From the IMG/VR virus record IMGVR_UViG_3300031965_000009, positions 1-64,000 of that record: DNA of 64,000 bases. The stretch is one strand, 5' to 3'. The position numbers and the translations under genes were made by a program. Origin of the DNA: a virus. Taxonomy: Duplodnaviria > Caudoviricetes. The notes below the pieces were generated by a model. It was given only the letters and a program-made list of their open reading frames with translations, ran no database searches and had not been told where the DNA came from. This document shows, piece after piece, positions 4,770 through 52,176 of this stretch (its first letter is position 1; each line of letters opens with the position of its first letter).

Positions 4770-5141
4770 CTAATCCATCTGGCATGCCATGTCCAGGTAT
4801 ACGCGCTTCGGTCCCCACCACCCGGAAGAATACCCAGAGGGACTGACATGCCGCATGGGATCAAGGTTAAGCTGCCTGACGCTTCTTTCGTTTGCATAAC
4901 TGAATGGCACAACTACCTTGATATAGCCTAGCATGTCATCGGGATTAAGGCCATAGACCATGTACTGCGGGCCTGCCTGCAACATGCTGAAAAACCAAAC
5001 ACTGACATCTCTGTACCCATTCTCTACCAGATGCGCACGCAAGGATATCTTTACTAGCTCTATCTCGTAATTCAATCTATTCCTGTCGGCCATGTACGTG
5101 GCCTTTGTTACTTGCGCTTGATCATATAAATCTTTTAACAT
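4770..5141 (-). CDS. Hypothetical protein, C-terminal CxM (CQM)
   Basis: Ends ...MACQMD; coupled to the upstream gene. Confidence 0.55.
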   Translation of the reverse strand: MLKDLYDQAQVTKATYMADRNRLNYEIELVKISLRAHLVENGYRDVSVWFFSMLQAGPQYMVYGLNPDDMLGYIKVVVPFSYANERSVRQLNLDPMRHVSPSGYSSGWWGPKRVYLDMACQMD

Positions 5142-5326
5142 GTTCTCTTCTCCATCATTACTGGTACTGGCTTAAGATACCACCCGTTCGGCATGGTATA
5201 TGTCGTCTCGCCACTGTCGAACCGAATTTCTATCCAACCATCCCTATCCCTATGACCAGTTACAGTGCATGGCACTGGTGTGTGCCATGTATACATGTAC
5301 TTCTTACCAATCTCTATTTCTTTCAT
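5135..5326 (-). CDS. Small SH3/KOW-like protein (VMM variant)
   Basis: Starts MKEIEIGKKY and ends PVMMEKRTC; ATGA overlap with the upstream gene. Confidence 0.55.
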   Translation of the reverse strand: MKEIEIGKKYMYTWHTPVPCTVTGHRDRDGWIEIRFDSGETTYTMPNGWYLKPVPVMMEKRTC

Positions 5327-5529
5327 GCTTTTCTTGCCTCCATCCTGCATGTTGCAGCACTATCTAGCGAAGAGTCGAAGAAGCTATACTCGCTGTCATC
5401 GTCTAAGACAACATCGTATACTGCTCGATTTTCAAGGCTCCAAACTCTAACAATCTTTCCAGTTCGGCTGCACCACCACAACTTTTTTATTACCCTCACC
5501 CTATCTCCTTTCTTAAATCTTTGTTCCAT
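5323..5529 (-). CDS. Small KOW/SH3-like protein, CxM family (CRM)
   Basis: FKKGDRVRV KOW-like start; ends TCRMEARKA. Confidence 0.7.
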   Translation of the reverse strand: MEQRFKKGDRVRVIKKLWWCSRTGKIVRVWSLENRAVYDVVLDDDSEYSFFDSSLDSAATCRMEARKA

Positions 5530-5537
5530 GATATAAT
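5529..5537 (+). promoter_or_regulatory. Extended -10 promoter, leaderless
   Basis: TGaTATAAT followed by 6 nt and the ATG at 5544. Confidence 0.6.
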
Positions 5538-5543
5538 TCTCCT

Positions 5544-6644
5544 ATGTATAAAGTAACAGTCAACCTATTACCACAAGATGCCACCCTTGCAGAGAAACAG
5601 CAAGTCTTGTCTGCCGTTCATGCCGATAAAGAAACCATCCTGCAATCTGCCGACGATGCCGTCTTGCTTGTCAATAGCGGCAGTGCAGGCAGCAGAGTTA
5701 AAGTCTGGTGGCAGGAACGCTGGCAAGATAATATTACCGCTTTCTTGCTTGACAATGGTGTGCAAATTGTAGACCACTATCCTGTCCCACCGCCTATCCC
5801 CCCACCCAATCAACCCATGTTTGGCTTGCATGCCCGCTCCGACCCAGGCGATATTAGCCAGCAAGAAGTTAATGAATTTAGCATAGCCAGGATCGAGGTA
5901 GCTAAAGTCTTGTCAGCCCATAGCGGGTCAAGCGTATCTTCCCTTGCCTCCTTGCCAAGCGTCAAGACCCTGATTATCCGGGCCTTTCTTGACTTCGGCG
6001 GCAGGAATGTCACACCAGATGACTTCTTTAACTGGTGCAAAGATGATGTCATTCGTACCCTTGATAACGCCCAAGGAAAGGACGTTATCCTCGAACTTCA
6101 CAACGAGCCTAATTTGGCCCCAGAAGGCTGGGGAACGTCATGGATGGATGGATACACCTTTGGGGCATGGTTAGACGCTTTAAGAGGCCGTTTTGAAGCT
6201 CTCAGGCCAAGTCTCAGGCTCATGTACCCCGGCTTATCACCAGGTGGCTATATTCCTGGCTTGAGACAGGATCATGTGCAGTTTATCGAGCAGTCCAGGC
6301 AGGCTGTCATGGGCATGGATGCCCTGGGGGTGCATGTATACTGGTCAGACGTTTTTCCGATGTCTGCCGCCCTGTCTGTGCTTGATGATTACATCGCCCG
6401 CTTTCCAGGCAAGGAAATATGGGTGACTGAGGCCAGTCACAATCAGGCAGGCAAGACGCCGCAGGAGAAGGCCCAGCAGTACATACAGTTTTACAATGCT
6501 CTCAAGAACAAGCCAGGCGTCCGGGGCGTGACATACTACGTAGCCAGCGCCAGCAATCCTGCCTTTGGCTGGCAGGGCGGGTCATGCGAGACATGGTTGG
6601 CCGGGGAGAGCATGGGCATTGGTAAGGCTGTAGCTATACGCTAG
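5544..6644 (+). CDS. Cell-wall module + TIM-barrel glycoside hydrolase
   Basis: N-terminal LLPQDAT...SADDA module; GH-like motifs ELHNEPN, GVHVYW and IWVTEA. Confidence 0.7.
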   Translation: MYKVTVNLLPQDATLAEKQQVLSAVHADKETILQSADDAVLLVNSGSAGSRVKVWWQERWQDNITAFLLDNGVQIVDHYPVPPPIPPPNQPMFGLHARSDPGDISQQEVNEFSIARIEVAKVLSAHSGSSVSSLASLPSVKTLIIRAFLDFGGRNVTPDDFFNWCKDDVIRTLDNAQGKDVILELHNEPNLAPEGWGTSWMDGYTFGAWLDALRGRFEALRPSLRLMYPGLSPGGYIPGLRQDHVQFIEQSRQAVMGMDALGVHVYWSDVFPMSAALSVLDDYIARFPGKEIWVTEASHNQAGKTPQEKAQQYIQFYNALKNKPGVRGVTYYVASASNPAFGWQGGSCETWLAGESMGIGKAVAIR

Positions 6645-7059
6645 AATCGAATTGGCAGCGAGGTATGGTAAGGTTGATGTCAATTATGTCTGCCCCTGCT
6701 TCATAAATCGCCACCAAGTTCTCAATCTTCTCCCAACGTGACGGCCCGGCAAGCAGCGTGTCCAGGTCAAACCTGAGAATGAAGTTACCTTCTTCTTCCT
6801 CGCCATATGCATCTAAGTAACCAAAATATACCTCGAACGTGGCTTCATCGCAGTCTAGCAATGTCTCCGCCACCTCGCCGTTCTCTGTTTCGTTTCCGTA
6901 AACTGAACTCCATGGCACCCCGCAGCTAGTAAGATACCGCTTCACATCATCAGCTATTTCCAGTGGGTCAAAGTCGTATAGCAGGTTTTCGTACTTTTCC
7001 TTGACCCTGCTTAGTTCTTGATATGCTTCTATGATTTCTTTCAATGATTGTATGCTCAT
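6634..7059 (-). CDS. Hypothetical acidic protein
   Basis: ATGA overlap with the upstream gene. Confidence 0.55.
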   Translation of the reverse strand: MSIQSLKEIIEAYQELSRVKEKYENLLYDFDPLEIADDVKRYLTSCGVPWSSVYGNETENGEVAETLLDCDEATFEVYFGYLDAYGEEEEGNFILRFDLDTLLAGPSRWEKIENLVAIYEAGADIIDINLTIPRCQFDSSV

Positions 7060-7274
7060 GACATTAAACACTCCTTTCCATTATGTCTTGATACCTCTGT
7101 TTTGTAAACATATACATACTTCCCTGTCACATCTGCTATTCTCACAACTCTCCCAACATTCTCGGCCACGTACATCGGTGAAGAGATGTCAATGCCCCTG
7201 ACTCGCACATCATCTAGCGACTGTTCATCTGGCTTGGTCAGGTAAACCCTATCACCTACCCTGTAATCTATCAC
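7056..7274 (-). CDS. Small KOW/SH3-like protein, CxM family (CLM)
   Basis: GTG start overlaps the upstream stop; YRVGDRV; ends KECLMS. Confidence 0.65.
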   Translation of the reverse strand: MIDYRVGDRVYLTKPDEQSLDDVRVRGIDISSPMYVAENVGRVVRIADVTGKYVYVYKTEVSRHNGKECLMS

Positions 7275-7513
7275 GCCCTTTCTCCTTTGCTCATCATGCA
7301 CTTGTCGCTGTATAGTTCTAGCTCAGAGGCATATAAGCAGTGCCCATCATAGTCTGGCTCAAGTGCGTACAATGACTTCTTCACTGGCACGGCTTTGATA
7401 ACATGCCTAACAGTGTACGTTTTATTCATGCTTCTCTCTCTTAACCGCATCAATCTCTGTGTAGTCTTATCTGGGTTGACTATCCTTACCTTATCACCTA
7501 CTTTATATTTCAT
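7271..7513 (-). CDS. Small KOW/SH3-like protein, CxM family (CMM)
   Basis: MKYKVGDKVRIV...DKCMMSKGERA. Confidence 0.7.
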   Translation of the reverse strand: MKYKVGDKVRIVNPDKTTQRLMRLRERSMNKTYTVRHVIKAVPVKKSLYALEPDYDGHCLYASELELYSDKCMMSKGERA

Positions 7514-7563: not shown

Positions 7564-7965
7564 ATGAACATATTAACATTGCTATTACTAGGAATATCTT
7601 CTCTGCTCCCAGTACCCGTCTCGCCTGAAAATGTACAGACAGGCTGGTTGAGCCAGTATGACCAATCCCCAACGGATGGTACTATTGAGTACCGGCAATC
7701 CGTCATGCAACTACCACGCGACCTGTCCTACCTTGACGGCCTGATTGCTGTGCCTGACTGCGACAGGATGAGCGAGACGGCCTGGTTAAGCATCAACGAC
7801 CAGCCCTGGCTGCATGTCGCTGTCTTTGATTGCAGCGGGCATGAAAGCACGACGGCATGGATGCAAGAGAACAACATCATTGGCGAGGCGTCGTATTACC
7901 TAGCACAGGAGCAAGGCTTCCTGGGTCAGGGAGGGGTCGAGGCTGTGCTTGTTTTTCCAGAATAG
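7564..7965 (+). CDS. Secreted protein, possibly DPBB/3D-like
   Basis: Hydrophobic signal peptide; IAVPDC...VAVFDCSG motif. Fold is a guess. Confidence 0.45.
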   Translation: MNILTLLLLGISSLLPVPVSPENVQTGWLSQYDQSPTDGTIEYRQSVMQLPRDLSYLDGLIAVPDCDRMSETAWLSINDQPWLHVAVFDCSGHESTTAWMQENNIIGEASYYLAQEQGFLGQGGVEAVLVFPE

Positions 7966-8249
7966 TCACGCATCCTGCACGCCACTTGTATTGGGACAGG
8001 TGGCGTGCAATCCCGCTTTTGCACATATACGTACCCCCCGCTATTCACCCTCAGCCCCAATATAGCATCTAAATCACCCCTGCCCCAGCCCTGGTCAATA
8101 ATTATAATGTATGAGTCATCACATACGCCGCATATCACCCCGCTCATACCAGTCCTGCACCGGGCTGTCATGCTTGCCGTAAGCGTTACTTTATGCGTTC
8201 GCTCGACAATTCTGTATCGTTCATATTTTTGTCCAGTTTCCTTAAACAT
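7926..8249 (-). CDS. CxM-family protein (CRM), paralog of 8952-9278
   Basis: MFKETG...YRIVERTHKV...G.SGVI.GV matches the paralog. Confidence 0.6.
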   Translation of the reverse strand: MFKETGQKYERYRIVERTHKVTLTASMTARCRTGMSGVICGVCDDSYIIIIDQGWGRGDLDAILGLRVNSGGYVYVQKRDCTPPVPIQVACRMRDYSGKTSTASTPP

Positions 8250-8251
8250 CT

Positions 8252-8479
8252 TCACTCCTTTGCCATTAAGCATTTAACCTGCACCTTTTCAAGCCTGTGC
8301 CCAAATACCCACCACTTATCTCCATTAAAGTCAACACGGTATACCAAGCCATCAGGGGAATAATACTCCCTTTTAACCTCAATGACAGTGCCGACAGCGT
8401 TCCTCAGCCTTTCCCTTCTTTGTTTGCTATAACCAGCTACATTCTTTATCCTTACTCTTTCACCTACTTCATGCCTCAT
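8252..8479 (-). CDS. Small KOW/SH3-like protein, CxM family (CLM)
   Basis: HEVGERVRI...VKCLMAKE. Confidence 0.7.
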   Translation of the reverse strand: MRHEVGERVRIKNVAGYSKQRRERLRNAVGTVIEVKREYYSPDGLVYRVDFNGDKWWVFGHRLEKVQVKCLMAKE

Positions 8480-8721
8480 GTTTCCTCCTTACTCATCATG
8501 CACTTGCTACCTACTAGCATGAACCTGTCAGGCTGCATCCACCACTGCCTGCCAAGCCATAGACTAGGGTCAAGAGCATGATCATACACGGCAATCCAGA
8601 TACGTGTACCAAAGTTGGTTCGCTCAACTCTGTCAACCGTAAGCACCAGATCGCGTGTATATGGCATGTTTATTAACCCCCTCTCTGTAACTTTGACCTT
8701 ATCACCTGCCTTAAATGTCAT
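8476..8721 (-). CDS. Small KOW/SH3-like protein, CxM family (CMM)
   Basis: FKAGDKVKV...SKCMMSKEET. Confidence 0.7.
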   Translation of the reverse strand: MTFKAGDKVKVTERGLINMPYTRDLVLTVDRVERTNFGTRIWIAVYDHALDPSLWLGRQWWMQPDRFMLVGSKCMMSKEET

Positions 8722-8971
8722 TCCTTTCCTCCATCATGCACCTGCTATTTACTAGCTCAAAGCATTCCGTCTCCATCCACCATGTCGTGCCAAGGTAGCC
8801 AGTTTGTCCATGGGCATACACGTCTATCCATACCTGATATTTTCCAATTATACTTGCATTTCTTGTTGTAATGCTGTGAACCGTAAACACTTTGTCGCCG
8901 TATTTCTCGCCAAATGAACACGCTAATCCCAGCCCAGCAAGCTTGACTTTATCACCTGCTTTGAATATCAT
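8711..8971 (-). CDS. Small KOW/SH3-like protein, CxM family (CMM), paralog of 8476-8721
   Basis: FKAGDKVKL...WIDVYAH...LGTTWWM...SRCMMEERNDI. Confidence 0.7.
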   Translation of the reverse strand: MIFKAGDKVKLAGLGLACSFGEKYGDKVFTVHSITTRNASIIGKYQVWIDVYAHGQTGYLGTTWWMETECFELVNSRCMMEERNDI

Positions 8972-9278
8972 GACGCTTGTCCTCCATGAAGCATGTCTTA
9001 GCTGCATCAATAAATATCACCTCGCTTGCATACGCTACAACGAATTCACCATCAAGTTCATGCAGGTGTATACCTAGTCCTTGCCTATCCATAACAATGA
9101 GAAAGTCTAAATCATCGTCGTTGCGGCGCTTAACCCCTGCTATGACACCTGTCTCACCATCTCTGTTCCAATCATATGTCCAATCCTCTTCAAACTCCTC
9201 GTTATACGGCAGCAGTACCCTATGTTCTCGCTCAACTAACTTGTACCCAAGCGCCTTTCCACCTATTTCCTTAAACAT
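8952..9278 (-). CDS. CxM-family protein (CFM)
   Basis: MFKEIG...KTCFMEDK. Confidence 0.65.
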   Translation of the reverse strand: MFKEIGGKALGYKLVEREHRVLLPYNEEFEEDWTYDWNRDGETGVIAGVKRRNDDDLDFLIVMDRQGLGIHLHELDGEFVVAYASEVIFIDAAKTCFMEDKRHDIQSR

Positions 9279-9289
9279 GTTATTACTCC

Positions 9290-10125: not shown

Positions 10126-10367
10126 CCGAGCAAGAACTACTTGAGGCCATCAGGCAGGCGCATGTCATAACCAGTGACGAGCAAGCCATGACCACAGAAG
10201 AGATATGTCAGGCTACAGGCATGGGGGTTAAGGCAGTGAGGGCAAGGTTAAAGAAGCTGGTTGGAGAGGGTAAGATGAGTGTGACGTGGGTCATGCGGGA
10301 TACATTGACCACGCCATTAACCGGTAGGCAGGCCCGCGTCCCTGGCTATAGGGCGCATGGGGCATGA
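10122..10367 (+). CDS. Winged-helix DNA-binding protein
   Basis: MTTEEICQATGMGVKAVRARLKKL HTH pattern; ATGA-type coupling. Confidence 0.65.
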   Translation: MTEQELLEAIRQAHVITSDEQAMTTEEICQATGMGVKAVRARLKKLVGEGKMSVTWVMRDTLTTPLTGRQARVPGYRAHGA

Positions 10368-10667
10368 TGGCTCTGCTCTCAGAGTAGCGACATCATTGCA
10401 CAGGTGATAGAACCTGCCACCCCGTAACCCATGCTTGTCGATATAGCTATACAATTCTTGGTCTTCAAACCCAAAGCGGCCGAACTCACCCCATAGCAGC
10501 CACGAGAGGCCGGCATCAATGCCAATGAGCCTGTATTCGCCGTGACTGATAAGACCCGCGGCCCCACCATTCAGGCATTGTTGACAACCTCCCTCGCTTG
10601 CTTGTAATTCCTGGCATGGCACGATCATGTCATACCCACATAGCTTTTCGTTGGTTCTTTCAATCAT
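10317..10667 (-). CDS. Cys-rich CxM-family protein (CPM)
   Basis: Paralog of 10660-11001 and 20137-20493 (YDMIVPC...GEYRLIGI...GGRFY). Confidence 0.65.
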   Translation of the reverse strand: MIERTNEKLCGYDMIVPCQELQASEGGCQQCLNGGAAGLISHGEYRLIGIDAGLSWLLWGEFGRFGFEDQELYSYIDKHGLRGGRFYHLCNDVATLRAEPSCPMRPIARDAGLPTG

Positions 10668-11001
10668 GTTTCACCTCCATCATGCACATGTCTTCCACGA
10701 CCTCGAACGTGCCATCGCAGGCATACAGGAACATGCCGTCCAGGCCATGTTGCAGGACATGTTCTCTTAATTCACAGTCAGGCCAACCACTTGCAAAGAA
10801 CCCGCCCAGCAATAACGATTGTCGTCGGCCGTTGTATTCCCCACCATCAACACCAATAATGTATATTTCACTATATCTTTCTACATCGCGGGCTTGCACG
10901 CAGCAGAAGCCATCTTCGTCATTACACTTCCTCACAAGCCTTCCTTTCTTTGGCATGATCATGTCAAAGCCATGCAACGTTTCTCCGGTTTTAACGAACA
11001 T
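10660..11001 (-). CDS. Cys-rich CxM-family protein (CMM)
   Basis: FVKTGETLHGFDMIMP...DMCMMEVKHD. Confidence 0.65.
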   Translation of the reverse strand: MFVKTGETLHGFDMIMPKKGRLVRKCNDEDGFCCVQARDVERYSEIYIIGVDGGEYNGRRQSLLLGGFFASGWPDCELREHVLQHGLDGMFLYACDGTFEVVEDMCMMEVKHD

Positions 11002-11446: not shown

Positions 11447-11665
11447 TCACTCCTTGCTCATCATGCACTTGTGTTCATGCACTAGCTCTAAGGAAGAGCT
11501 AAAGAAGCTGCATCTATGATAGGGGCCGGTAAATAAGAGGCCGTGGTAGTATCCGCCGGAACAGTTGTGGGTGCTAATAACCACACCCTCCATGCCCTCC
11601 CACAGCGAGCCTTTTCTTGTCACCCTGACCTTATCACCCTTATTAAACCTTCTTTCGTTTATCAT
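11447..11665 (-). CDS. Small KOW/SH3-like protein, CxM family (CMM)
   Basis: FNKGDKVRVTRKG...HKCMMSKE. Confidence 0.7.
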   Translation of the reverse strand: MINERRFNKGDKVRVTRKGSLWEGMEGVVISTHNCSGGYYHGLLFTGPYHRCSFFSSSLELVHEHKCMMSKE

Positions 11666-12465
11666 GTCACCGGTATCCTTAACCCATGCTTCATGCGGGC
11701 GAACACGTACCCATCGCCGCCGGCATTTGCCAGGTTGCTTGTTGTTATCAGTATCGTGGCCTTGTCATCATGGTCGTATCTTGTGTTAATAGCGTCAATG
11801 ATATACTGTACATCATTACCAGTTATGCGGTCTATCTCGTCTATGACCAGTAATCGGGGGCGCAGGACGCTGTCGTTAAGGTAATCTATCTCACTGCTTT
11901 CCCTGTCCCCCCATGTCTTCTTGATTTCCATGACTAGCTGCCTGCTTGTCTTGTAGACAGCATGTACCCCATGCCTGCATGCGTTCATGACCACTATCTG
12001 AGCCGCAGTGGTCTTGCCCATGTCATGCGGCCCGAACAGGGTTATCATGCCCCTGCATTCCGGGAAGGAGAGCATGAATTCTTGTAATGTCTCGACCATC
12101 AATTCCCTGCCAGACATGCCATCATAGTAGTTGAATGACTTCGTCCTGTCACCCATGGGCACGCCGCATGAATCAAGGAGCATGTTCACCAGTTCCCCTC
12201 TATCCCCATTGCACATGATGCATGGGACAGTATGACTCTCCCCGATGTACCAGCCCCCATCCTGGTCAGGTATAGCCACCTTGCCACCGCCTGTCATGGG
12301 ACGATGGGTGGTCTTTTGTGAAAGGATAGAGGTTATCACTACTACTCCAGCCCCACCACAGTTACTGCACCTGTCTAGCTGCTTGCCTATGCCAAGCAAG
12401 CCAAGCTCATGCCCGGCCTCAAATGTCGGTATGTTAGCTAACCTGATATTGTTAATTGTTTTCAT
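11662..12465 (-). CDS. DnaC/IstB-like AAA+ ATPase (helicase loader)
   Basis: CxxC pairs (CSNC, CIMC), Walker A GPHDMGKT, Walker B LLVIDE, TINTRY and ITTSN. Confidence 0.85.
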   Translation of the reverse strand: MKTINNIRLANIPTFEAGHELGLLGIGKQLDRCSNCGGAGVVVITSILSQKTTHRPMTGGGKVAIPDQDGGWYIGESHTVPCIMCNGDRGELVNMLLDSCGVPMGDRTKSFNYYDGMSGRELMVETLQEFMLSFPECRGMITLFGPHDMGKTTAAQIVVMNACRHGVHAVYKTSRQLVMEIKKTWGDRESSEIDYLNDSVLRPRLLVIDEIDRITGNDVQYIIDAINTRYDHDDKATILITTSNLANAGGDGYVFARMKHGLRIPVT

Positions 12466-12739
12466 GCGCCCATGCCTTGAGGGCGTCGCTATCCCACTCG
12501 TTCTCGCTAACTTTCATGTTCATGCTTTCGATGTTACTGGCCACATAGCTGCATGACAGGTACTTGTCCTGCCAAAACTTGTCTTGTTTTATCTTCATGT
12601 AAGCCTGCACTATCTCCTCCTCGCTGTACCCACGGGTAAGCATGTTCTTCACGCCGCTGCATTCCCTGCCATAGTTTGGTACTATCGTAAGCCCCAATTC
12701 TTTCCCAATCCTGCCAACTATCTCACCTGGACTAGACAT
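12452..12739 (-). CDS. Small protein resembling a replication-initiator C-terminal domain
   Basis: GYSEEEIVQAY...DKFWQ motif, immediately upstream of the DnaC-like gene. Confidence 0.45.
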   Translation of the reverse strand: MSSPGEIVGRIGKELGLTIVPNYGRECSGVKNMLTRGYSEEEIVQAYMKIKQDKFWQDKYLSCSYVASNIESMNMKVSENEWDSDALKAWAHENN

Positions 12740-13616
12740 GCTCTTCCTCCTTGTTTCTCATGGCCTCAGCTATAGCATCGGCCACACTAATTCTTGTTAC
12801 CCTCTCGAATACTTGAAACGCAGGTGCCTCGTTAGCCTCTATAACATACACCTGTCTTGTGTCGCTATGCCTGACAAGGTCAACGCCACAGACACTTATG
12901 CCCAACGTCATGGCTGCCTGTTCTGCCATTCTTGCTACGTCAGAAGGGAAGCGACCGCTCTTGAACCGCTTACTCTTGCCATTAGAAGACGAGCAGACCA
13001 GCTTGTTCTTCTTGGGTCGGCGCTTGTACATGCCAATGCACCTGCCGTCAATGACCATAGCTCTATAGTCGCCGTTATTAGGTATGTACTCCTGCACCAG
13101 CCACTCCGTATCCACACCAGTAAACCCCTCTCCGTTCTCTTTACGATTCTCTAATGTTCCTCTAATCTGGTGTTCTATATCCTCTTCTCTAAGCAGGAAC
13201 GTGCCCATGCCTTTCCTGCCGTTCCGGTTGAACTTGAGTATGACAGGGTAAGAAGAGAGACTGGCAAGGGCCGTGTTAAGGGATGGGTAGATGGTTGTTT
13301 GCGGTTGATTAACCGCATCAAGCAGCTTTGTATAGTGCATGTGCTTGCTTCTTGCCCCAGGCCCATCTGTCAGCAGGTAGTTATCCATGATGATCTTACC
13401 ATGTTCCCTGCCCCATGCCACAAGCCTGTCTACAGTCCTGTACGCCCTGCCAACCGCCCTGAAATACCACAAGTTATCATTGGCTATGTCTACGGTTGCA
13501 TGTCTTGGTCTGCCAGACATGTCGAAGCTTATGTCGTGGTACATGACCACGTCCCAGCCGGCCTCGGCAAGCCGCATGTCGGTGTATTCGTTTTCAATAC
13601 GCTTGAACGCTATCAT
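12732..13616 (-). CDS. RimK-like ATP-grasp ligase
   Basis: Motifs LVQEYIP, DYRAMVIDG, CGVDLV and YVIEANEAP; TAATG coupling to the upstream gene. Confidence 0.88.
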   Translation of the reverse strand: MIAFKRIENEYTDMRLAEAGWDVVMYHDISFDMSGRPRHATVDIANDNLWYFRAVGRAYRTVDRLVAWGREHGKIIMDNYLLTDGPGARSKHMHYTKLLDAVNQPQTTIYPSLNTALASLSSYPVILKFNRNGRKGMGTFLLREEDIEHQIRGTLENRKENGEGFTGVDTEWLVQEYIPNNGDYRAMVIDGRCIGMYKRRPKKNKLVCSSSNGKSKRFKSGRFPSDVARMAEQAAMTLGISVCGVDLVRHSDTRQVYVIEANEAPAFQVFERVTRISVADAIAEAMRNKEEEHV

Positions 13617-13831
13617 TATCTCTTCTCCATGATACATATACTTTCTAATCTGTAACCATATAAACCATGCCTGCCCTCTTTGGGAACTTCAACATCATAA
13701 TACCAACCATCAGCAGAAAACTGATCCGGCCTGGCATCCATAATATCTACCACCAATCCATACCATCTTTTGGGCCAGCCACGAGTATGTATTATTCTTG
13801 CCTTATCACCTATTGCGAATCTTTGCTTCAT
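13616..13831 (-). CDS. Small KOW/SH3-like protein, CxM family (CIM)
   Basis: FAIGDKARI...ESICIMEKR. Confidence 0.7.
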   Translation of the reverse strand: MKQRFAIGDKARIIHTRGWPKRWYGLVVDIMDARPDQFSADGWYYDVEVPKEGRHGLYGYRLESICIMEKR

Positions 13832-14034
13832 GTCCCTTCCTCCATCATGCATCTACCTTTCTCGATGACCACTAGCTGATGTACGGGGTTGAAAGCCTGA
13901 TCATCCCACCGTTGTTGTGTACATGCTTCATCGTCACACCACCAGCCCCACACCTTTTCACCGTCTATATAGGTCACTATAGCATACCCATCTGTAATCA
14001 ACGACTGAACCTTATCACCCACTTCTATGTTCAC
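13828..14034 (-). CDS. Small KOW/SH3-like protein, CxM family (CMM)
   Basis: GTG start; IEVGDKV...GRCMMEEGT. Confidence 0.7.
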   Translation of the reverse strand: MNIEVGDKVQSLITDGYAIVTYIDGEKVWGWWCDDEACTQQRWDDQAFNPVHQLVVIEKGRCMMEEGT

Positions 14035-14264
14035 CCTTTTCCTCCCTGCATCATGCACCTGCCTTTCCCGATTATGGTTACGGTGTCTTCGTAGGCATAC
14101 ATCTCTTTGTTACCGTATGCTAGAACAGTGCGTTCCTTATCGTAGTACCACTCTCCCCATACTCGAGATTTCCCAAAATGTAGCGCGAAGTCAACCCGAG
14201 TCACAACCGTATAGATTCTTAGCCTACTACTGCAAACCAGATCACCTACTTCCACTGCCATCAT
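14031..14264 (-). CDS. Small KOW/SH3-like protein, CxM family (CMM)
   Basis: VEVGDLV...GRCMMQGGKG. Confidence 0.7.
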   Translation of the reverse strand: MMAVEVGDLVCSSRLRIYTVVTRVDFALHFGKSRVWGEWYYDKERTVLAYGNKEMYAYEDTVTIIGKGRCMMQGGKG

Positions 14265-14329
14265 TACCTCCTTGGGGCATGTAAGGGGCATGTAACATGC
14301 TCATTACATGCCCCAATACTTATAGCACG

Positions 14330-15198: not shown

Positions 15199-15960
15199 TT
15201 AATCTGGTAGGTTGTAAATTTCTTCTATCACCATGATTGGTAAGTGTGCTTTCATGGCAATGTAAGCCTGTAATGCTTGTCTGGTTGACTTGGCGTCAGT
15301 CATTTCCTGGCCGTTATTGTAGCCGTACACGAGCGAGCGGGACGTGCTCTCGATATTTGCGGGGACGATAAGGTTGCGCATGACATTGACGGCAGACGCC
15401 TTGCTGTCAATAGCCGCTCTGCTATCTCTGCCATCTTCCGTCGTGCTTGTGACATGACTGACATAGTAGTTTACTCTTCTTCGGGCGGCGGACAATTCTT
15501 CTAATCTTGCGTTAATGTCTATATCATTCTCATACACCACCCTGCCGTCATCATACACGCTCATCTCGTGCTCGTAGGGCCATTCGGTACCATCAGGTGA
15601 CTTGATCACCCAGTTGTTTATTGACCAGCCATCAGGCAACATGTACTTACCGATGGCCCATTCATGCCATGGCAGCATGTTCGTGGCGAACAGACGAACA
15701 AAGCCGTCTGCCTTGCCGCCAATGTATTCATTGGCAGAGAAGAACATGCGGCATTCGTCAGGCAGGCGACACCCGGTCTTGACCCAGGCCACGAACGGGT
15801 AGTCGGGCCCATGCGGGCAACCATGGCCAGGCTCTGGGGCAAGCAGGAATTCTACCACCTCGTCGTTCGGCACGCCAGACTTCATCTCGACTAATCTATG
15901 CCCTTCTTTCTGGCATAGCGTATCAGTTAATTCTTTCAGTGGGTTTGTGTTGTTAAACAT
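15199..15960 (-). CDS. Hypothetical protein
   Basis: Long ORF overlapping the end of the M28 gene; no family recognised. Confidence 0.6.
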   Translation of the reverse strand: MFNNTNPLKELTDTLCQKEGHRLVEMKSGVPNDEVVEFLLAPEPGHGCPHGPDYPFVAWVKTGCRLPDECRMFFSANEYIGGKADGFVRLFATNMLPWHEWAIGKYMLPDGWSINNWVIKSPDGTEWPYEHEMSVYDDGRVVYENDIDINARLEELSAARRRVNYYVSHVTSTTEDGRDSRAAIDSKASAVNVMRNLIVPANIESTSRSLVYGYNNGQEMTDAKSTRQALQAYIAMKAHLPIMVIEEIYNLPD

Positions 15961-20136: not shown

Positions 20137-20493
20137 TTAAACTCTTGGGGCATTTTCAAACATGCACTTATTGTTATTTAAGACCTGCACTACTTCTCTG
20201 CACACATTATAAAACCCACCTCCTTCTATGCCGAACTCGCTCATATACTGTCTTAAGACTTCTCGGCTCCACCCCTCGTTGCTATTAAACCACACGAGTA
20301 ATGATGAATGCTTAGCCGCTCCCCTTTCTGGTCTTATACCAACCAACCTGTATTCACCACTGTTCATTATCTCTTCAAGCATGTCCTTGCTGAAGCAATA
20401 TCCAGTTTCGCATGGCCCAAGAAAGCGCATGTCTTTGCATGGTACGATAAGCTCGTACTCGTCATACCTTTTGCCAGTCTTTATAATGCTCAT
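20137..20493 (-). CDS. Cys-rich CxM-like protein (CMF)
   Basis: Third paralog of the 10317/10660 pair; ends NKCMFENAPRV. Confidence 0.65.
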   Translation of the reverse strand: MSIIKTGKRYDEYELIVPCKDMRFLGPCETGYCFSKDMLEEIMNSGEYRLVGIRPERGAAKHSSLLVWFNSNEGWSREVLRQYMSEFGIEGGGFYNVCREVVQVLNNNKCMFENAPRV

Positions 20494-20743: not shown

Positions 20744-21307
20744 TCATGCTTTTCCTCCATAGTACATTTCTTTATACAGGAAATGCGCCATTCCAAGCGC
20801 TAGCACTGGGTCGGCATGGACAAGCTCGGTGATGTCATACCTACTTGCGTCAGGTACAAGCACCTGGAACATGACATCCTGTTCAAGCCCGACGACTACT
20901 ATGGGCATACACTGTGGTATGGCAAACTTCACCACACCATCATTTGTCCATGTAATGCTATTCATGTACACGGCCAGATATGGCTCGGGTATCTTGCGCC
21001 ACAAAGCATGGCGCATGTCTTCCCGGCTAAGTTCTTTCTGCTTGTTCCTGGCACGGGCATACTCATGCGTCAGGTATATGCGCTCTGCTGTCGCCAGCGG
21101 CGAGGGGTCATGCTTGCTCGACATGACGCATGTGTCTGCGACAGGCTCAAGGAATCTCCCGGTCGTGATAGCGACGATTTCGCCGTTGTCAAACATAACC
21201 ATTGTTAATTTTCCACTCCCAAAGCCCACGCTGAGGACCGTGCATGTCATGCCATAGTATTTACTGCCTGGGTTTGTATACGTATATCTATCCCCAATCT
21301 TCATCAT
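20744..21307 (-). CDS. KOW/SH3-like domain with internal CVM fused to a second domain
   Basis: MKIGDRYTY...DTCVMSSK followed by about 120 more residues. Confidence 0.6.
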   Translation of the reverse strand: MMKIGDRYTYTNPGSKYYGMTCTVLSVGFGSGKLTMVMFDNGEIVAITTGRFLEPVADTCVMSSKHDPSPLATAERIYLTHEYARARNKQKELSREDMRHALWRKIPEPYLAVYMNSITWTNDGVVKFAIPQCMPIVVVGLEQDVMFQVLVPDASRYDITELVHADPVLALGMAHFLYKEMYYGGKA

Positions 21308-36566: not shown

Positions 36567-36788
36567 TCATTGCTTAACCTCCATAAGGCATGGTCTTTGT
36601 TCTCTGGCCATTCTTCTGATGTCTTCACCAATATGTGAAGCAAATATGTCATCCCATCTCCTCATGCTATCATATATCTCATAGGCGCTGCTGAAAGCAT
36701 CGGCGCATGCCTGCATGGTGATACCAAATCCATTGATAACTCTTACGGCCTCTGTTGCCATTCTCGTTAGCTTATCAAGATCGTCCAT
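36567..36788 (-). CDS. Small helical protein with C-terminal CLM
   Basis: Ends RPCLMEVKQ; no KOW motif. Confidence 0.55.
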   Translation of the reverse strand: MDDLDKLTRMATEAVRVINGFGITMQACADAFSSAYEIYDSMRRWDDIFASHIGEDIRRMAREQRPCLMEVKQ

Positions 36789-37705: not shown

Positions 37706-37924
37706 TTATCTTTTCTCCATGGGGCATGGTTTCTCTTCCACGAACCCGTCATTCCATCTCGGCCCCGGCTGATACCCCCAGATGTACCTTCCACCATCTG
37801 CCCACCAATCGCCTGTTTCATGATACGATATATAGTATTCGTTCAGACTCCTTGCCAACATACTACGAAAGTCCTCAGTCTTGACACCAACCCTTACTGT
37901 AATAAGTGTTTTATCGGACTTCAT
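37706..37924 (-). CDS. Small CxM-family protein (CPM)
   Basis: Ends KPCPMEKR. Confidence 0.55.
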   Translation of the reverse strand: MKSDKTLITVRVGVKTEDFRSMLARSLNEYYISYHETGDWWADGGRYIWGYQPGPRWNDGFVEEKPCPMEKR

Positions 37925-38222
37925 TCTTCACCTCCATCATACACCTATAATCTATGAACTCAAGCTTACTTCCAAACACAAAGTTAGCCCTAGTTTCATC
38001 TAGCATGATATGCTCTACTGGTACAGATAGGTCTTGCTTGTCAAATACAACGATGTAGTCATGTGCATCACTGTTTTGTTTTGGATTATGGTACATTGAA
38101 CGTCTTGCTACAGCCCAACATATCTGCCCGGCCTTCACCCCGCTAGGGTCATTACTAACAACCCTCACCTTCTGTACTTCAATGGCCCCAAACCCCCTGT
38201 AGTCATGTATTGCGTTCGGCAT
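37911..38222 (-). CDS. CxM-family protein (CMM)
   Basis: Tandem paralog of 38203-38535 (IHDY...DY.VVF...LEFI..CMMEVKN). Confidence 0.7.
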   Translation of the reverse strand: MPNAIHDYRGFGAIEVQKVRVVSNDPSGVKAGQICWAVARRSMYHNPKQNSDAHDYIVVFDKQDLSVPVEHIMLDETRANFVFGSKLEFIDYRCMMEVKNEVR

Positions 38223-38535
38223 TCTTAACCTCCATCATGCATTCTTCTGGTATAAACTCCAGGTGTCTTTCGTATACATACCCGGCCCTACCAATCCTCA
38301 TTAATTCATGCAAGGGCAAAGATAGGGCATCCTTTTTGAAAACCATTACGTAATCAACCTCGAGCCGCATCGCTTCGGTCCTGTCCCTCCCCCTTATCGA
38401 CTCTATAGCCTTGTGGTTACTCGATACTACCCACCCCATCTTCCCGGCCCCTAGACCCGGCTGCCCGACTGTCACCCTTACCATTCTTGGCTTGTCTAAT
38501 GCCTTGTACGAATAGTAGTCATGTATGTTGCTCAT
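38203..38535 (-). CDS. CxM-family protein (CMM)
   Basis: ATGA overlap with the DnaB stop; ends EECMMEVKNAERNT. Confidence 0.7.
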   Translation of the reverse strand: MSNIHDYYSYKALDKPRMVRVTVGQPGLGAGKMGWVVSSNHKAIESIRGRDRTEAMRLEVDYVMVFKKDALSLPLHELMRIGRAGYVYERHLEFIPEECMMEVKNAERNT

Positions 38536-39842
38536 TGTACAATACTCCTTGTTATATTCATGAAGCTTGCCGCCCGTGGGTTCCAAACAAGCTCAACCGT
38601 CCCCACTGAACCATCCCGGTTCTTGGCGACAATGTTTTCCGCCAACTGCTTTCTGCTACTTCCCATGGGGTCATAGTAATCATCCCTGTACAGGAATGTA
38701 ACAGAGTAAGCATCTTGTTCAATGGCTCCTGACCCACGCAGGTCAGCAAGTGTAGGCCGCTTGTCACTCCTGCTTTCCAGTGACCTGTTTAATTGCGCCG
38801 CAAGAATGGACGTTACATCGGCCTCCTTGCTTATCTGTGTCAATCTCTTTGTTATCTTGGCGATGTCGTAGACATCATTACCACTGCCCTTGTCAGGCTC
38901 CATGAGGTGCAGGTGATCATAGATGATCAGGTCTAATCCATGCACCGCCTTTATCCTGGCTACCTTGGCTCTGGCCTGTGACGGCGTTAGCCCCCCAGTC
39001 TCGTCAAGGAAAAGAGACGAGCTATTAATCTTGTCAACGACAGCATGCACCTTATACATGGCGGCATCACTTAGCTTGCCGCCCCGCAGCAAGTGCATGT
39101 CTATGCCTGTCTCGTGAGCCACAAGCCGCTGGGCCATCTGCTTGGCAGTCATCTCAAGGCTGAAAAACAGCACCCGCTTGTGCTCGATGAACAGGTTGTG
39201 GGCAATCACGCCTGTCAGCCAGGCCGACTTGCCCATGGCCGGCCGAGCGGCAAGGACATGCAGGAACGGGGACGCAAGTCCACCACCCATGAAGTTGTCA
39301 TACTCGCTATACCCAGTCCTTGAACCAACCAGTTCACCTTGATCAAAGTAATCAAGGTATTCACTTGCCACCGCCTTACCGGTCTTGACATCGCTGTTCA
39401 CCCTGGTTGTAGAAAGGTCTAGGATAGCGCTTTCGCTTGCGGCTATCTGCTCTTCTAAGTCCCCCCCCTCGTCATAAGCCAGATTGGCCGTCATGTTGGC
39501 CAGGGCAAGTAGCTTCCTTCTGCCGGAGGCATCCTTGATTATCCTGGCATAGTCTTTGGCATTCCATGATGTTGGAGAAGCGTTAATCAGACCAAGCAAA
39601 TACCCTTCCCCACCCATGTCTTCTAGCCTTCCACGTTTCCTTAAGTCATCCGTGACAGTGATAAGGTCTACACTCTTGTTATTATTGTCAAGACTAACAA
39701 GCGATTCATATACCCAGGCATTTACCTCCCGGTAAAAGTCTGTAGCCTCAATCTGTACATGCTTGATGGCATCAGGGTCAATGAGCAATGCCCCCAATAA
39801 TGCCTCTTCTGCTTCTATGTTATTTGGTGGGCTTTCGTTCAC
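38532..39842 (-). CDS. dnaB: Replicative DNA helicase
   Basis: PPNNIEAEEALLGALL; Walker A AARPAMGKS; FFSLEM; AQLNRSLE; LADLRGSGAIEQDA. Confidence 0.95.
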   Translation of the reverse strand: MNESPPNNIEAEEALLGALLIDPDAIKHVQIEATDFYREVNAWVYESLVSLDNNNKSVDLITVTDDLRKRGRLEDMGGEGYLLGLINASPTSWNAKDYARIIKDASGRRKLLALANMTANLAYDEGGDLEEQIAASESAILDLSTTRVNSDVKTGKAVASEYLDYFDQGELVGSRTGYSEYDNFMGGGLASPFLHVLAARPAMGKSAWLTGVIAHNLFIEHKRVLFFSLEMTAKQMAQRLVAHETGIDMHLLRGGKLSDAAMYKVHAVVDKINSSSLFLDETGGLTPSQARAKVARIKAVHGLDLIIYDHLHLMEPDKGSGNDVYDIAKITKRLTQISKEADVTSILAAQLNRSLESRSDKRPTLADLRGSGAIEQDAYSVTFLYRDDYYDPMGSSRKQLAENIVAKNRDGSVGTVELVWNPRAASFMNITRSIVQ

Positions 39843-41375: not shown

Positions 41376-42005
41376 ATGAGGGACACAGCACCAAAGCGAA
41401 ATGAGATTCAAATACTAAATGACCGCAGGCGAACTGCCCAGCTACTGCTTGAAGGGTACACCCATCAGCAAATACGTGATGTACTCGAACAAGAGACTGG
41501 AATTACATTGTCGCGTCGTACAATTACCAATGATGTCGGGGCTATCAAGAAAGACTGGGCCGAGCAGCAAAGGGCCAGCGTCCATGCTCTTGTCAATCAA
41601 GAGATTGACAGGCTGGACTTCAGCGAAGCTGAAGCATGGCGGGCATGGCGGGCCTCATGCGGCGACGAGGTTCAGGAAACTGTCGAGAAGATAGCCAGGT
41701 ACATGAAGCAAGAGGATGGCTACGTACCCGACGAGGATGAATACGAATTAAGGGTTCAGCGCGTGACCCAAATAATCAAGAAGAGCGGTGGCGTAGGCGA
41801 CCCAAGATTCTTTAATATCATCCTCGACCTACAGAAAGAAAGGCGGAAGCTGCTGGGATTGTATGCGCCAAGCAGGTTGGGCATTGATGTCACCACCAAG
41901 TCGGAAATCATTATCAAGGGCTATGCCGTCAAGGACGTGTCGCCTGACGCATGGCCGTCCCTGCCAAGCAATGACATCATCGAGGGAGAGATAGTTGAAC
42001 GGTAA
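41376..42005 (+). CDS. Terminase small subunit-like protein
   Basis: N-terminal HTH; RRKLLGL...SEIII tail; overlaps the large terminase start. Confidence 0.65.
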   Translation: MRDTAPKRNEIQILNDRRRTAQLLLEGYTHQQIRDVLEQETGITLSRRTITNDVGAIKKDWAEQQRASVHALVNQEIDRLDFSEAEAWRAWRASCGDEVQETVEKIARYMKQEDGYVPDEDEYELRVQRVTQIIKKSGGVGDPRFFNIILDLQKERRKLLGLYAPSRLGIDVTTKSEIIIKGYAVKDVSPDAWPSLPSNDIIEGEIVER

Positions 42006-47715: not shown

Positions 47716-49197
47716 ATGAGCAACAAGGGGGGTCTATATGGCCCAGTTTCCTTTGCGGAGCTCGAGGAACTCGTCGAAGCAAGAGAAGAAGCATCCCGCA
47801 TTATGTCTTTGGGGTCAGCCTTCAGTATGCTTTCGGATAACATCCTGATGGATGATGAGATTGAGGATAAGACAACGGCGTTGTCGTCCTTGCTTTCAGA
47901 ATACTCAGAGAGGTTAAGCAACGCAAACAAAAGTGCCGGGGTGGAAGCCACGGGGGAGCCATCAGGCTTTGAGGTATTGCTAAACATCTGGTCTGCCATG
48001 AAAGGCACGCCGATGAAATCCGAGGAAGACGAAGTATTCCCTGCGAGCCATTACCTAATCGTTGATAATCCGCAAGACCCGGAAACATGGTATATACGGG
48101 TCAAAGATAAAGCCGGTAATATTGATCCTGCCCTGCTTAACAAGGCATGGTTCGATGGAGAATACAGAGACGAGCTCAAGGAATTATATTCCAAGAGTGG
48201 TCTTCGCACGCCTGAAAACATGTCGATTGTCAAGGACAAGTCCGGCAAGTGGCTGTGGTTTGCACGCTATTCCAATAAATATTTAGATGACGATTACCCA
48301 CAAGAGATTATCAGTGAGCAGTCTCATCTTAATTTCGTCAAAGAAGTCAGGGAGGGGAGGGAAGACTACCCCGAACTATGGCTTCATCACATCAAGGGGA
48401 CTACATGGGGGAAGGCCACATGGGTCGGCTACGACAGCGGCTTTGCGCTTGCTGCAGGCTATATCTATCCTGAATACGAGGATATAGCTATCAGCCTGTC
48501 CAAGCAGACAAACATACTCCTGTCTCATGGCATGTCACCTGAATCAATTATTCGTGACCCGGATAACCCAAATATTATTTTGCAGCACGCCACGAAGGAG
48601 ATTTCACCTCTTCCTGCGCATCGGGCCGCAAACAAACTGACCGGGTTTATTGTACTCGAAGAGGAGGACAACATGTCAGAGAAAGGATTGTCTCGAGAAG
48701 ATCGGGAGACCTTAGTCAACATGGGTATTGCAGAAGCCTCTATCGAAAAGCTGGACAACGCAACGTCGAAAATTGCGGAGGTTGCTGAAAACAGTGACCT
48801 TCCTCGTAAAGAGGTCAGTGAACCCGATGTGGCTCAAGAGCAGACTCAGGTTGAACAAGAGGCTGTAGAAGAAGTAGTAGAACAAGTAGAAGACCGCAAT
48901 GATGAATTACTTGGCATCCTGGTTGAAAGCGTAAAAGCTATCAACGACCGGATGGTAGCGGTACAAGCACTGGCTCAGGCGAACGCCAACAGCATTGAAG
49001 CCATGGCTCAAGAACACAACAAAATTGTTGGCGAAAGCACCAAGGCTTCACGCATCAGTATTTTACAATCGGTTATTGGTAATGAGGACGCACGGGTTGA
49101 TGGACGAAAGTCATTAGCTCGCTCCGGGCCTGTAGAGTCAAAGCCGAACGGCGGTGGCCTTTTCTGGCGAGAGGAGGGCTGGACAAATGGAAACTAA
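47716..49197 (+). CDS. Prohead protease + scaffold fusion
   Basis: LWLHH and KEISPLP...AAN resemble HK97-type protease motifs; acidic coiled-coil C-terminus. Confidence 0.7.
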   Translation: MSNKGGLYGPVSFAELEELVEAREEASRIMSLGSAFSMLSDNILMDDEIEDKTTALSSLLSEYSERLSNANKSAGVEATGEPSGFEVLLNIWSAMKGTPMKSEEDEVFPASHYLIVDNPQDPETWYIRVKDKAGNIDPALLNKAWFDGEYRDELKELYSKSGLRTPENMSIVKDKSGKWLWFARYSNKYLDDDYPQEIISEQSHLNFVKEVREGREDYPELWLHHIKGTTWGKATWVGYDSGFALAAGYIYPEYEDIAISLSKQTNILLSHGMSPESIIRDPDNPNIILQHATKEISPLPAHRAANKLTGFIVLEEEDNMSEKGLSREDRETLVNMGIAEASIEKLDNATSKIAEVAENSDLPRKEVSEPDVAQEQTQVEQEAVEEVVEQVEDRNDELLGILVESVKAINDRMVAVQALAQANANSIEAMAQEHNKIVGESTKASRISILQSVIGNEDARVDGRKSLARSGPVESKPNGGGLFWREEGWTNGN

Positions 49198-50635: not shown

Positions 50636-50665
50636 CAACTCGCTGTAGTTGAGTCACTCTCCTGG

Positions 50666-50695
50666 AAAGGGGTACTTTAACCGGTACCCCTTTTT
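50666..50695. terminator. Bidirectional intrinsic terminator
   Basis: AAAGGGGTAC-TTTAACCG-GTACCCCTTT followed by Ts. Confidence 0.85.
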
Positions 50696-51423
50696 AGTTT
50701 CCTGTAATCTATGATCTTGTCATGCTTCTCGAAGTTACACTTTTGGCACAACGGTTGTAGATTATCTATGTTGCTAGTCCCGCCACTAGAGATGGGTATT
50801 ATGTGATCTACATTCACCCTAACCTCGTCGAACGACCTGCCACAGCACAAGCAGCGATTGTCATATTGCTCACACAGGGCTTTGAATTCAGCCGCCGTAT
50901 AGGAACCGCCCGCCTGGGTTTTACGGGTTCGCCGGCGGTGTTGATTGGCGACGTGCTTTTCGGGGTTATTCTTTTGCCACCGGGAAACAGCAGCGCGAGC
51001 CTTGTCTGGGTTGTTGACCCGCCACTTCTGACTATTCTCACGCACCTTATCGGGGTTATTGGCCCGCCAGCGAGTGCTGCGCCTGCGATTACCTTCGCGG
51101 GCCTTTTCTGGGTTGCTTGCTCTCCAACGACGCTTACCCTCTTTTATCTTTTCAGGATTAGTGTCTGCCCACCGACGACTGCGCTCTCGTTCCTTATCGG
51201 CGTTGTCGGCTCTCCATCTAGCGTCAGATATGGCCTTACACGATACACACGCTCCCCACTTGTTTCTATCAACTCCCCCACAATTCCTACACTCCCAATC
51301 TTTTCTTGCTGGCTTGCCATAACAAGCTTTGCAATCTGGGCGGTATCCGTCCTTGCTTTTGGCGTTTTTCCAGAATTCATTAAGCGGTTTGACAACCCTA
51401 CATTTACTACACTTCTTTGTCAT
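50677..51423 (-). CDS. HNH endonuclease with N-terminal Zn knuckles and RWxxxNP repeats
   Basis: CLCCG...VDHIIPISSGGTSNIDNLQPLCQKCN. Confidence 0.9.
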   Translation of the reverse strand: MTKKCSKCRVVKPLNEFWKNAKSKDGYRPDCKACYGKPARKDWECRNCGGVDRNKWGACVSCKAISDARWRADNADKERERSRRWADTNPEKIKEGKRRWRASNPEKAREGNRRRSTRWRANNPDKVRENSQKWRVNNPDKARAAVSRWQKNNPEKHVANQHRRRTRKTQAGGSYTAAEFKALCEQYDNRCLCCGRSFDEVRVNVDHIIPISSGGTSNIDNLQPLCQKCNFEKHDKIIDYRKLKRGTG

Positions 51424-51492
51424 AAAAAAACTCCTTGCCCGTTGCCATTAGTCATGCTTTGTCATCTCGCTCATTCTCGCAGTTATTATATA

Positions 51493-51711
51493 CTAACTTT
51501 TTCGCTGCATCATGCATGGCGGCATAGAAATCTCGTTCCTATTAACCCTGACCACACGCCCCTTTCCGGGGCCGTTTCGTATCACTGCATAAAACCAACC
51601 ATCACCAGATAGCCAATCCCGCTCTTCAATCTCGGCAATAATATCCCCGCCCCACGCTTCCGACACCAAACCATAGACTTTGTTAAAGCTAATACATACT
51701 ATCATTCTCAT
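51493..51711 (-). CDS. Small CxM-family protein (CMM)
   Basis: Ends PPCMMQRKS. Confidence 0.6.
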   Translation of the reverse strand: MRMIVCISFNKVYGLVSEAWGGDIIAEIEERDWLSGDGWFYAVIRNGPGKGRVVRVNRNEISMPPCMMQRKS

Positions 51712-51987
51712 ACTCCTCTAATGTAATGTTCTATACCATCATGCCTTGCCACCTGTAATGCTCCTGTGTGAAGGCAAATAATTCTCTCATCTTCCTCTAA
51801 TGTAATGTTCTACTCGCGGCGGAACATTAATACAACATGAGAAAACCGCTAAAATGAACATGAATTATTTGCATTTTTCTTGACTCCATGATAGCATGTT
51901 ACATGCTCCTGTCCTGGTATCATGCTCATGCTTTTATTTCTTTTATTATTTCTTTTACATGCTGCATGCTACTAGATCATGATCATG

Positions 51988-52176
51988 CTACATGCTCATG
52001 TAACATGGGCGTTCGACTTTTTTCAGCATGCTCTTGTGGACAATGCCAAGCTCTGTCTCACCGCAATTGACTTCAACAAACTGAGTCACGACACTCTCCC
52101 TGATAACTACTCCCGTCACTCCTTTGTGACACGGGCATGTAAGCTCCACCCTATCCCCAACGTTAAATTCATTCAT
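51988..52176 (-). CDS. Small KOW/SH3-like protein, CxM family (CYM)
   Basis: AAGGAG RBS; MNEFNVGDRVEL...RPCYMSM. Confidence 0.7.
   Translation of the reverse strand: MNEFNVGDRVELTCPCHKGVTGVVIRESVVTQFVEVNCGETELGIVHKSMLKKVERPCYMSM

Follow-up and report, generated by a model that had tools for sequence, protein, structure and literature searches.

A short Cys-x-Met motif recurs on small, mostly SH3-like proteins of a phage clade and may serve as a common handle

The window analyzed here comprises positions 1 to 64,000 of the tailed-phage record IMGVR_UViG_3300031965_000009 (Duplodnaviria; Caudoviricetes), taken from an uncultured phage whose genome, a single contig, measures 79,278 bp, and it encodes a series of small proteins that end in the tripeptide Cys-x-Met (C-x-M) or carry it at the close of a domain. 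Analysis of these carriers, together with those of related phages, revealed that C-x-M is a short protein-level motif specific to a small phage clade. An earlier reading of the same DNA, hereafter the original prediction, had listed 23 C-x-M sites; when each listed end of an open reading frame (ORF) was checked by translation, all of them translated as stated, and a 24th carrier was added from the opposite strand. Within a gene set obtained by heuristic gene calling (144 genes), carriers represent about one in seven (~15%) of the proteins of this phage, with ~24 members here and ~15 in its relatives, although one or two of them, for instance the CQM at 4770, could be due to chance. The coordinates of all carriers, and of the neighboring genes to which we refer, are collected in Table 1.

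The C-terminal enrichment of this tripeptide was assessed over the last 20 residues of the proteins, a check for which the original prediction had asked. Among 400 gapped dipeptides, C.M ranked first, being present in 23 genes where the internal rate predicts 1.14 (P 2.5e-22), and 2000 trials of residue shuffling within proteins averaged 1.8 and never exceeded 8. The excess was confined to the coding frame, in which the last 20 codons of genes contained the pattern TGYNNNATG 22 times and all internal codons together nine times, whereas the other two frames at gene ends contained three and five occurrences, approximately as their internal rates predict. A general enrichment of Cys at C-termini was considered as a simpler cause and rejected, since a rough tally gave ~16 non-motif genes with Cys in the last ten residues, about as expected.

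The residue pattern also conformed to what had been proposed, namely a Cys encoded by both of its codons and followed by a variable residue. The Cys codon is TGC in 18 and TGT in four carriers of this phage, and across the 37 carriers overall TGC is used 28 times, TGT nine times, and TGG never, with the flanking Pro and Leu residues also using several codons. At the middle position Pro and Met predominate, the other residues there being largely hydrophobic, and the Cys is preceded by Pro or Lys/Arg. Met is replaced by Val twice, by Ile, by Phe (in a family-B carrier), and, in one doubtful case from the relative L020, by Asp; these mostly hydrophobic replacements are more in line with a contact residue than with a metal ligand. 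The tail that follows the Met spans 1–17 residues and is reduced to a single residue in three of the 37 carriers.

A search with the DnaB sequence recovered three metagenomic contigs at 50–55% identity, followed by chromosomal DnaB proteins of Chloroflexota/Anaerolineae at 42–45%; because these are the nearest cellular DnaB sequences, the host phylum is probably Chloroflexota. The relatives were read over 38.7 kb of a 78-kb phage (L019, L021, and L022), the 14.6-kb contig L020, and the 3-kb contig L059. In the 78-kb relative the gene order is as here, with large unnamed proteins, a RimK-like ligase, a DnaC-like loader, and small genes around them. Of 90 genes in this relative, 11 exhibited an in-frame C-x-M in the last 20 codons against 1.12 expected (again top-ranked, P 3e-8), and TGYNNNATG at gene ends was found 11 times in frame and three and four times in the other frames. 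Ten of these 11 motifs are C-P-M, usually after a Pro; L020 carries C-P-M and C-I-M, and L059 carries two P-C-L-M. The Cys and Met are consequently retained in relatives (11, 2, and 2 cases in L019/L022, L020, and L059, respectively), in which Cys, Pro, and Leu use alternative codons. In addition, the orthologous SH3-like proteins L019:12656–12871 and L059:1754–1954 both end P-C-L-V-(A/S)-R-L-E-K, a variant in which Val replaces the Met and a tail of its own is conserved.

This retention contrasts with the divergence of the proteins themselves, which the original prediction had already called divergent outside the motif. Only one carrier pair is detectable by BLAST between phages, at 30% identity (14031–14261, whose counterpart ends in CPM), and in an alignment of 20 SH3-like carriers from the four contigs the only invariant columns are an N-terminal Gly and the Cys of the motif. 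Of the two outcomes that the original prediction had named as refuting, neither occurred: C-x-M exceeds the frequency expected from CATG and ribosome-binding-site (RBS) composition, and the relatives keep it through synonymous codons. The motif is therefore under selection at the protein level. Further clade members were sought by several routes: profile searches with A1 and A4 against a 5.8-billion protein set returned only proteins of the same four contigs, protein pattern scans of viral contigs (queries 8476–8721 and the 493-aa protein of 47716–49197) yielded no further relatives, nucleotide-word scans of viral contigs produced single matches per contig at about the estimated chance level, and a RimK-like alignment scan of JGI metagenome contigs likewise yielded none.

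The compact arrangement of the carrier genes raised a quite different explanation, according to which TGYNNNATG would be a nucleotide signal read in frame by accident, be it an initiation region, a CATG-based DNA or RNA site, or a cassette recombination junction. Of the 22 C-terminal carriers, 16 have the start codon of the following gene 19–26 nt past their Cys codon (11 nt at 7056), and the Shine–Dalgarno sequence of coupled carriers starts directly after the Met codon or 5–6 nt later. This proximity is nevertheless not what the motif follows: the motif is missing 19–26 nt upstream of the start in ten family or array-first genes, carriers that stand before a gap or an unrelated gene and those without a coupled downstream gene still end in C-x-M, and in the fusion protein encoded at 20744–21307 the motif is internal. 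An RBS context of the form ATGGAGG was rejected because the general context proved to be AAGGAGG. We also discarded an RNA hairpin displaying the Shine–Dalgarno sequence between the CATG of the motif and that of the start codon, given that the stability of the junction folds exceeded neither that of shuffles (mean z -0.26) nor that of other junctions. Finally, nine of the ten copies of TGCATGATG, the dominant form in this phage, fall at these junctions, but no copy was present in the contigs of the relatives that were read, which preserve C-x-M through other codons.

The second ground for a nucleotide signal is the abundance of CATG, which is 3.4-fold over-represented in this phage (1056 occurrences against 309 expected from base composition) and is contained once or twice in most motif copies through codon choices such as CCA-TGC and CCC-ATG. 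Over-representation varies across the clade, with 4.1–4.9-fold in the 78-kb relative, ~2.4-fold in L059, and ~1.3-fold in L020. The codon choices themselves are not peculiar to the motif, for CCA precedes Cys/Trp in 28 of 38 cases genome-wide and NNC precedes Met in 65–74%; a C stands before 53% of all Met codons, and before 65% once the final 25 codons of every gene are excluded. The match between the codons of the motif and this genome-wide codon-pair bias indicates that the bias shapes the codons of the motif and not its existence. A requirement for CATG alone would, moreover, admit TGG (Trp) as readily as TGC or TGT, yet Trp is found in none of the 37 carriers; one carrier of a relative is encoded without any CATG (CCG TGC CCT ATG). 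A double-CATG DNA site was rejected as well, as CATG pairs with a spacing of 5–8 nt abound throughout the genome, only a few of them belong to the motif, and the motif never contains TGG. Taken with the variable middle codon and the lack of excess in the other two frames, both here and in the relative, these findings largely refute a nucleotide-signal origin, which we regard as very improbable.

Two observations on CATG stand apart from this argument. Distances between neighboring CATG sites peak at 5–8 nt, and GATC and CGCG are depleted. L020 encodes an MT-A70-type adenine methyltransferase among its early genes (L020:11774–12352), and its CATG frequency is near normal, unlike that of the other clade members.

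The analysis of the gene junctions also modified one element of the proposed tag, namely the "few charged residues" held to follow the motif. These residues are present, but they do not belong to it: the charged tail arises because it is the translation of GGAGG or AAGGAG plus the spacer of the overlapping next gene. Over the final six residues, Glu accordingly makes up 13.5–18.6% in all translationally coupled genes, whether or not they carry the motif, compared with 2.8–6.9% in uncoupled genes and a background of 6.3%. A by-product of the RBS of the next gene is hence an adequate description of the charged tail alone, and not of C-x-M, in view of the reading frames, the array-first genes, and the RBS context described above.

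We then turned to the bodies on which the motif is carried, for which a KOW/SH3-like domain had been suggested. The KOW-like start (F/Y)x(V/A/I)GD(K/R)V announced for many carriers is present as an N-terminal x-G-D-(K/R)-V in the 11–12 members of family A. The AlphaFold model of 8476–8721 consists of a five-strand SH3-like barrel at a predicted local distance difference test (pLDDT) score of 75, and its best Foldseek matches were PsaE, NusG(-KOW), PetP, and NdhS, with template modeling (TM) scores of 0.5–0.68 and E of ~0.03. The family A model is thereby recognizable as an SH3-like β-barrel. The KOW label itself did not hold, as the Pfam family (PF00467, 27 residues with a conserved Gly) gave no match to ten carriers at E up to 1 or to nine more proteins at E up to 0.1. 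Neither Pfam nor PHROGs assigned a family to any carrier, the Pfam rows returned being weak and below threshold (SH3_12 and Dcp1). Families B and C (~105–118 residues) have only the last strand and the motif in common with family A by profile comparison; the AlphaFold model of family B reached a pLDDT of 44 and is unusable, the Atlas model of a family C protein resembled SH3 domains at low confidence (TM 0.45–0.49), and the Atlas yielded nothing for 36567–36788.

With respect to these bodies, the motif sits two to five residues past the last β-strand. In the model of 8476–8721 it occupies residues 74–76 of 81, in a tail after the last strand with pLDDT below 50. The C-terminal position emphasized in the original prediction therefore requires rewording: the motif does end most carriers, but what it ends is the SH3-like module, as in 20744–21307, and it need not be terminal in the protein.

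A search with the family A hidden Markov model against 1.84 billion representatives brought up hundreds of distant homologues, which are SH3-like proteins of tandem-repeat architecture. C-x-M after the last strand was found in none of 140 distant homologues or 656 repeat ends, nor did it occur at their C-termini, and its lack in these proteins indicates an innovation of this phage clade and not an ancestral part of the fold. The homologues P0001, P0006, and P0010 comprise 3–17 tandem SH3-like repeats, connected through short linkers of Pro, Glu, and Lys; in the phage, the corresponding units are separate genes arranged back to back.

That so many carriers are built on one fold leads to an explanation without any tag or partner, in which a single SH3-like ancestor gained a short extension whose Cys and Met pack on the barrel, the non-SH3 carriers being chance cases or unrecognized family members. 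At least 12 carriers are clearly SH3-like, and the last strand plus motif that families B and C have in common with family A would agree with such a descent. So would the fairly fixed distance at which the motif always follows the last strand shortly, the fact that it closes the module within a fusion protein as well, and the mostly hydrophobic substitutes of Met. AlphaFold, conversely, leaves the motif unpacked, with residues 74–76 below a pLDDT of 50, and the distant homologues fold without it. About one or two chance cases are to be expected, a number exceeded by 36567, 37706, and several carriers of the relatives, which are dissimilar beyond the motif. An absolutely invariant Cys would also be unusual for a packing residue once everything else has drifted. 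We consider a purely structural role doubtful.

The invariance of the Cys, the one motif residue that never changes, also brings chemistry into consideration: Cys and Met, with the second Met in CMM, could bind Cu(I) or a similar ion, or the Cys could link covalently or by redox chemistry to a target. In published work, we found a "CXM" or "Cys-X-Met" motif described only for Cu(I) sites, in NosL and in the CTR copper transporters, where Cys and Met are strictly conserved. In NosL, the conserved Cys and Met of the CXM motif have been proposed as two sulfur ligands of Cu(I), bound with attomolar affinity (PMC6530538), and in CTR the motif, like that of the modeled carrier, lies in a flexible region (PMC6531763). 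The sequence criterion of such sites, a Cys and a Met two residues apart, is present in all 37 carriers. NosL and CTR have other folds, are extracytoplasmic or membrane proteins, and bind copper by measurement, whereas the carriers are small cytoplasmic phage proteins in which the Met is sometimes Val, Ile, or Phe. These natural substitutions weigh mildly against a Cu(I) site. The relatives do show extra Cys residues within ten residues of the motif (4.4% vs. 1.3% elsewhere in the same proteins, P 0.002), but this phage does not (0.6%). A conserved third ligand such as His is absent, and why ~20 early proteins should bind copper is not apparent. On balance, metal or thiol chemistry as the main function appears unlikely.

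The explanation that we favor is that the motif is a Cys-dependent handle read by one putative shared phage or host partner, to which we assign a probability of roughly 0.4. Fast-diversifying SH3-like early modules, along with a few dissimilar small proteins, each end in the same Cys-x-Met, and under this proposal the invariant Cys with its mostly hydrophobic companions in a flexible tail would form the common handle. Recognition would fall to one shared partner, of the phage or of the host, with which the thiol may react, so that a wide range of SH3-like binding modules could feed one process of early infection. Among the possible partners, the original prediction had named the co-located ATP-grasp ligase and peptidase. 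The residues after the Met are unconstrained, turning acidic or basic only where they double as the Shine–Dalgarno sequence and spacer of the next gene. The proteins 36567 and 37706, which match the SH3-like profile over the motif alone, were taken as a sign that the motif is portable. A more specific form can be offered only tentatively, with the odds leaning against it: Cys-x-Met would be an address or attachment handle by which ~15% of the proteins, each presenting a distinct SH3-like binding surface, would be covalently or metal-linked to, modified by, or delivered to one machine early in infection.

Several points weigh against a handle of this kind. Most carriers are SH3-like, so that common descent together with a structural role could explain the majority of them. 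The alignments available for modeling were shallow, so the "flexible tail" may be an artifact, and the model of family B could not be used. An invariant Cys in a cytosolic protein is more typical of chemistry (metal, redox, or covalent link) than of simple docking. Lastly, the clade amounts to only four contigs in the databases searched.

The literature search brought up no account of such a motif in phage proteins, and the systems that resemble it do so in part. The tandem-repeat and small SH3-like families (PsaE/PetP/NdhS/NusG-KOW-like, with weak DUF1918/NHase_beta_C similarity) have the x-G-D-(K/R)-V strand and five-strand barrel of the carriers; their repeats, however, end after the last strand without Cys-x-Met, whereas the units of the phage are separate genes, each with the motif. 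The capsid targeting sequence of the T-even internal proteins is comparable in that a short terminal signature is placed on many dissimilar small phage proteins, and in both cases the common signature suggests a single reader. That sequence is N-terminal, spans ~10 residues, is cleaved by the prohead protease, and marks virion proteins, in contrast to three residues at the end of a domain in early proteins; the carriers do not belong to this class, their motif being at the C-terminal end of the domain and their genes near those of DnaB, the DnaC-like loader, and the RimK-like ligase. The eukaryotic CaaX box similarly places a Cys and then hydrophobic residues near the C-terminus, but requires the Cys exactly four residues from the end, which the variable tails and the one internal motif do not allow. 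The C-P-M of the relatives recalls the Cys-Pro-hydrophobic pattern of the Cys-Pro heme regulatory motif, in which the Pro is invariant; here Pro follows the Cys in 13 of the 37 carriers overall and in two of the 22 in this phage.

Table 1. Cys-x-Met carriers of the window and neighboring genes of the early and replication block (the number after the plus sign is the count of residues following the motif).
Coordinates	Strand	Product	Motif	Remarks
4770..5141	-	123 aa	CQM+1	without similarity to SH3-like families; possibly a chance case
5323..5529	-	68 aa, SH3-like family A	CRM+5	
7056..7274	-	72 aa, SH3-like family A	CLM+1	GTG start
7271..7513	-	80 aa, SH3-like family A	CMM+6	
7926..8249	-	107 aa, family B	CRM+14	without coupled downstream gene
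8252..8479	-	75 aa, SH3-like family A	CLM+3	
8476..8721	-	81 aa, SH3-like family A	CMM+5	residues 74-76; modeled member
8711..8971	-	86 aa, SH3-like family A	CMM+6	
8952..9278	-	108 aa, family B	CFM+10	array-first; no motif upstream of own start
10317..10667	-	116 aa, family B	CPM+12	
10660..11001	-	113 aa, family B	CMM+5	
11447..11665	-	72 aa, SH3-like family A	CMM+3	non-family genes on both flanks
11662..12465		DnaC-like loader		early/replication block
12732..13616		RimK-like ATP-grasp ligase		domain confirmed; syntenic in the 78-kb relative
13616..13831	-	71 aa, SH3-like family A	CIM+3	last of trio; next gene RimK-like ATP-grasp
13828..14034	-	68 aa, SH3-like family A	CMM+4	
14031..14261	-	76 aa, SH3-like family A	CMM+5	first of trio; BLAST counterpart in relative ends CPM
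20137..20493	-	118 aa, family B	CMF+6	variant
20744..21307	-	187-aa fusion	CVM, internal	residues 60-62 (codons ~21122-21130); closes N-terminal SH3-like module, then 125-residue extension
36567..36788	-	73 aa	P-CLM+4	only the 8-residue motif in common with SH3-like profile
37706..37924	-	72 aa	P-CPM+3	only the 9-residue motif in common with SH3-like profile
37911..38222	-	103 aa, family C	CMM+7	low-confidence Atlas model resembles SH3 domains
38203..38535	-	110 aa, family C	CMM+9	first gene after DnaB; no motif upstream of start
38532..39842		DnaB-like helicase		early/replication block
51493..51705	-	70 aa, family-A-like	P-CMM+4	next gene 69 nt away; tail not acidic
51988..52176	-	62 aa, SH3-like N-terminal motif	P-CYM+2	without coupled downstream gene
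59246..59419	+	57 aa	CIM+6	within sugar-gene cluster

Regarding the genomic setting, the first 196 nt of the contig are repeated at 79083–79278, giving a unit length of ~79,082 bp, and this terminal repeat indicates that the assembly is circular or terminally redundant at ~79.1 kb. The small carriers lie mostly in a leftward block of ~4.3–41 kb that contains early and replication genes. The gene at 15953–17437, which the original prediction had named an M28 peptidase, received no support for that label from Pfam, its sole family support being a PHROG "peptidase" match (E 1e-11). The large terminase (41995–45549) has 1184 residues here and 453–458 in two relatives.

Three further observations concern the surroundings of individual carriers. 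Directly upstream of the RBS of 14031–14261, which opens the C-x-M trio, positions 14274–14314 hold an inverted repeat, GGGGCATGTAA-N8-TTACATGCCCC, followed by a third TTACATGCCCC; with its CATG-containing half-sites, this repeat is a candidate operator or regulatory hairpin. At 36478–36567, an RBS in the tail of 36567–36788 and an ATG overlapping its stop codon open a short ORF of fewer than 33 residues, which was skipped by the gene call and may encode an unannotated miniprotein. The 63-residue protein of 5135–5326 ends V-M-M-E-K-R-T-C, which resembles CMM-E-K-R with Val in place of Cys and a terminal Cys, and it may be a decayed or variant carrier.

No part of phage genomes is less well understood than their batteries of small early proteins, and to our knowledge almost no phages of Chloroflexota have been studied. 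The present case offers a clean example of how a protein motif can be separated from the RBS and CATG-enrichment signals that overlap it. The survival of a three-residue signature while the proteins around it diverge beyond recognition points to a single common step, whether recognition, modification, or metal binding. If the handle is real, it would represent an undescribed logic of protein tagging in a phage clade that probably infects Chloroflexota.

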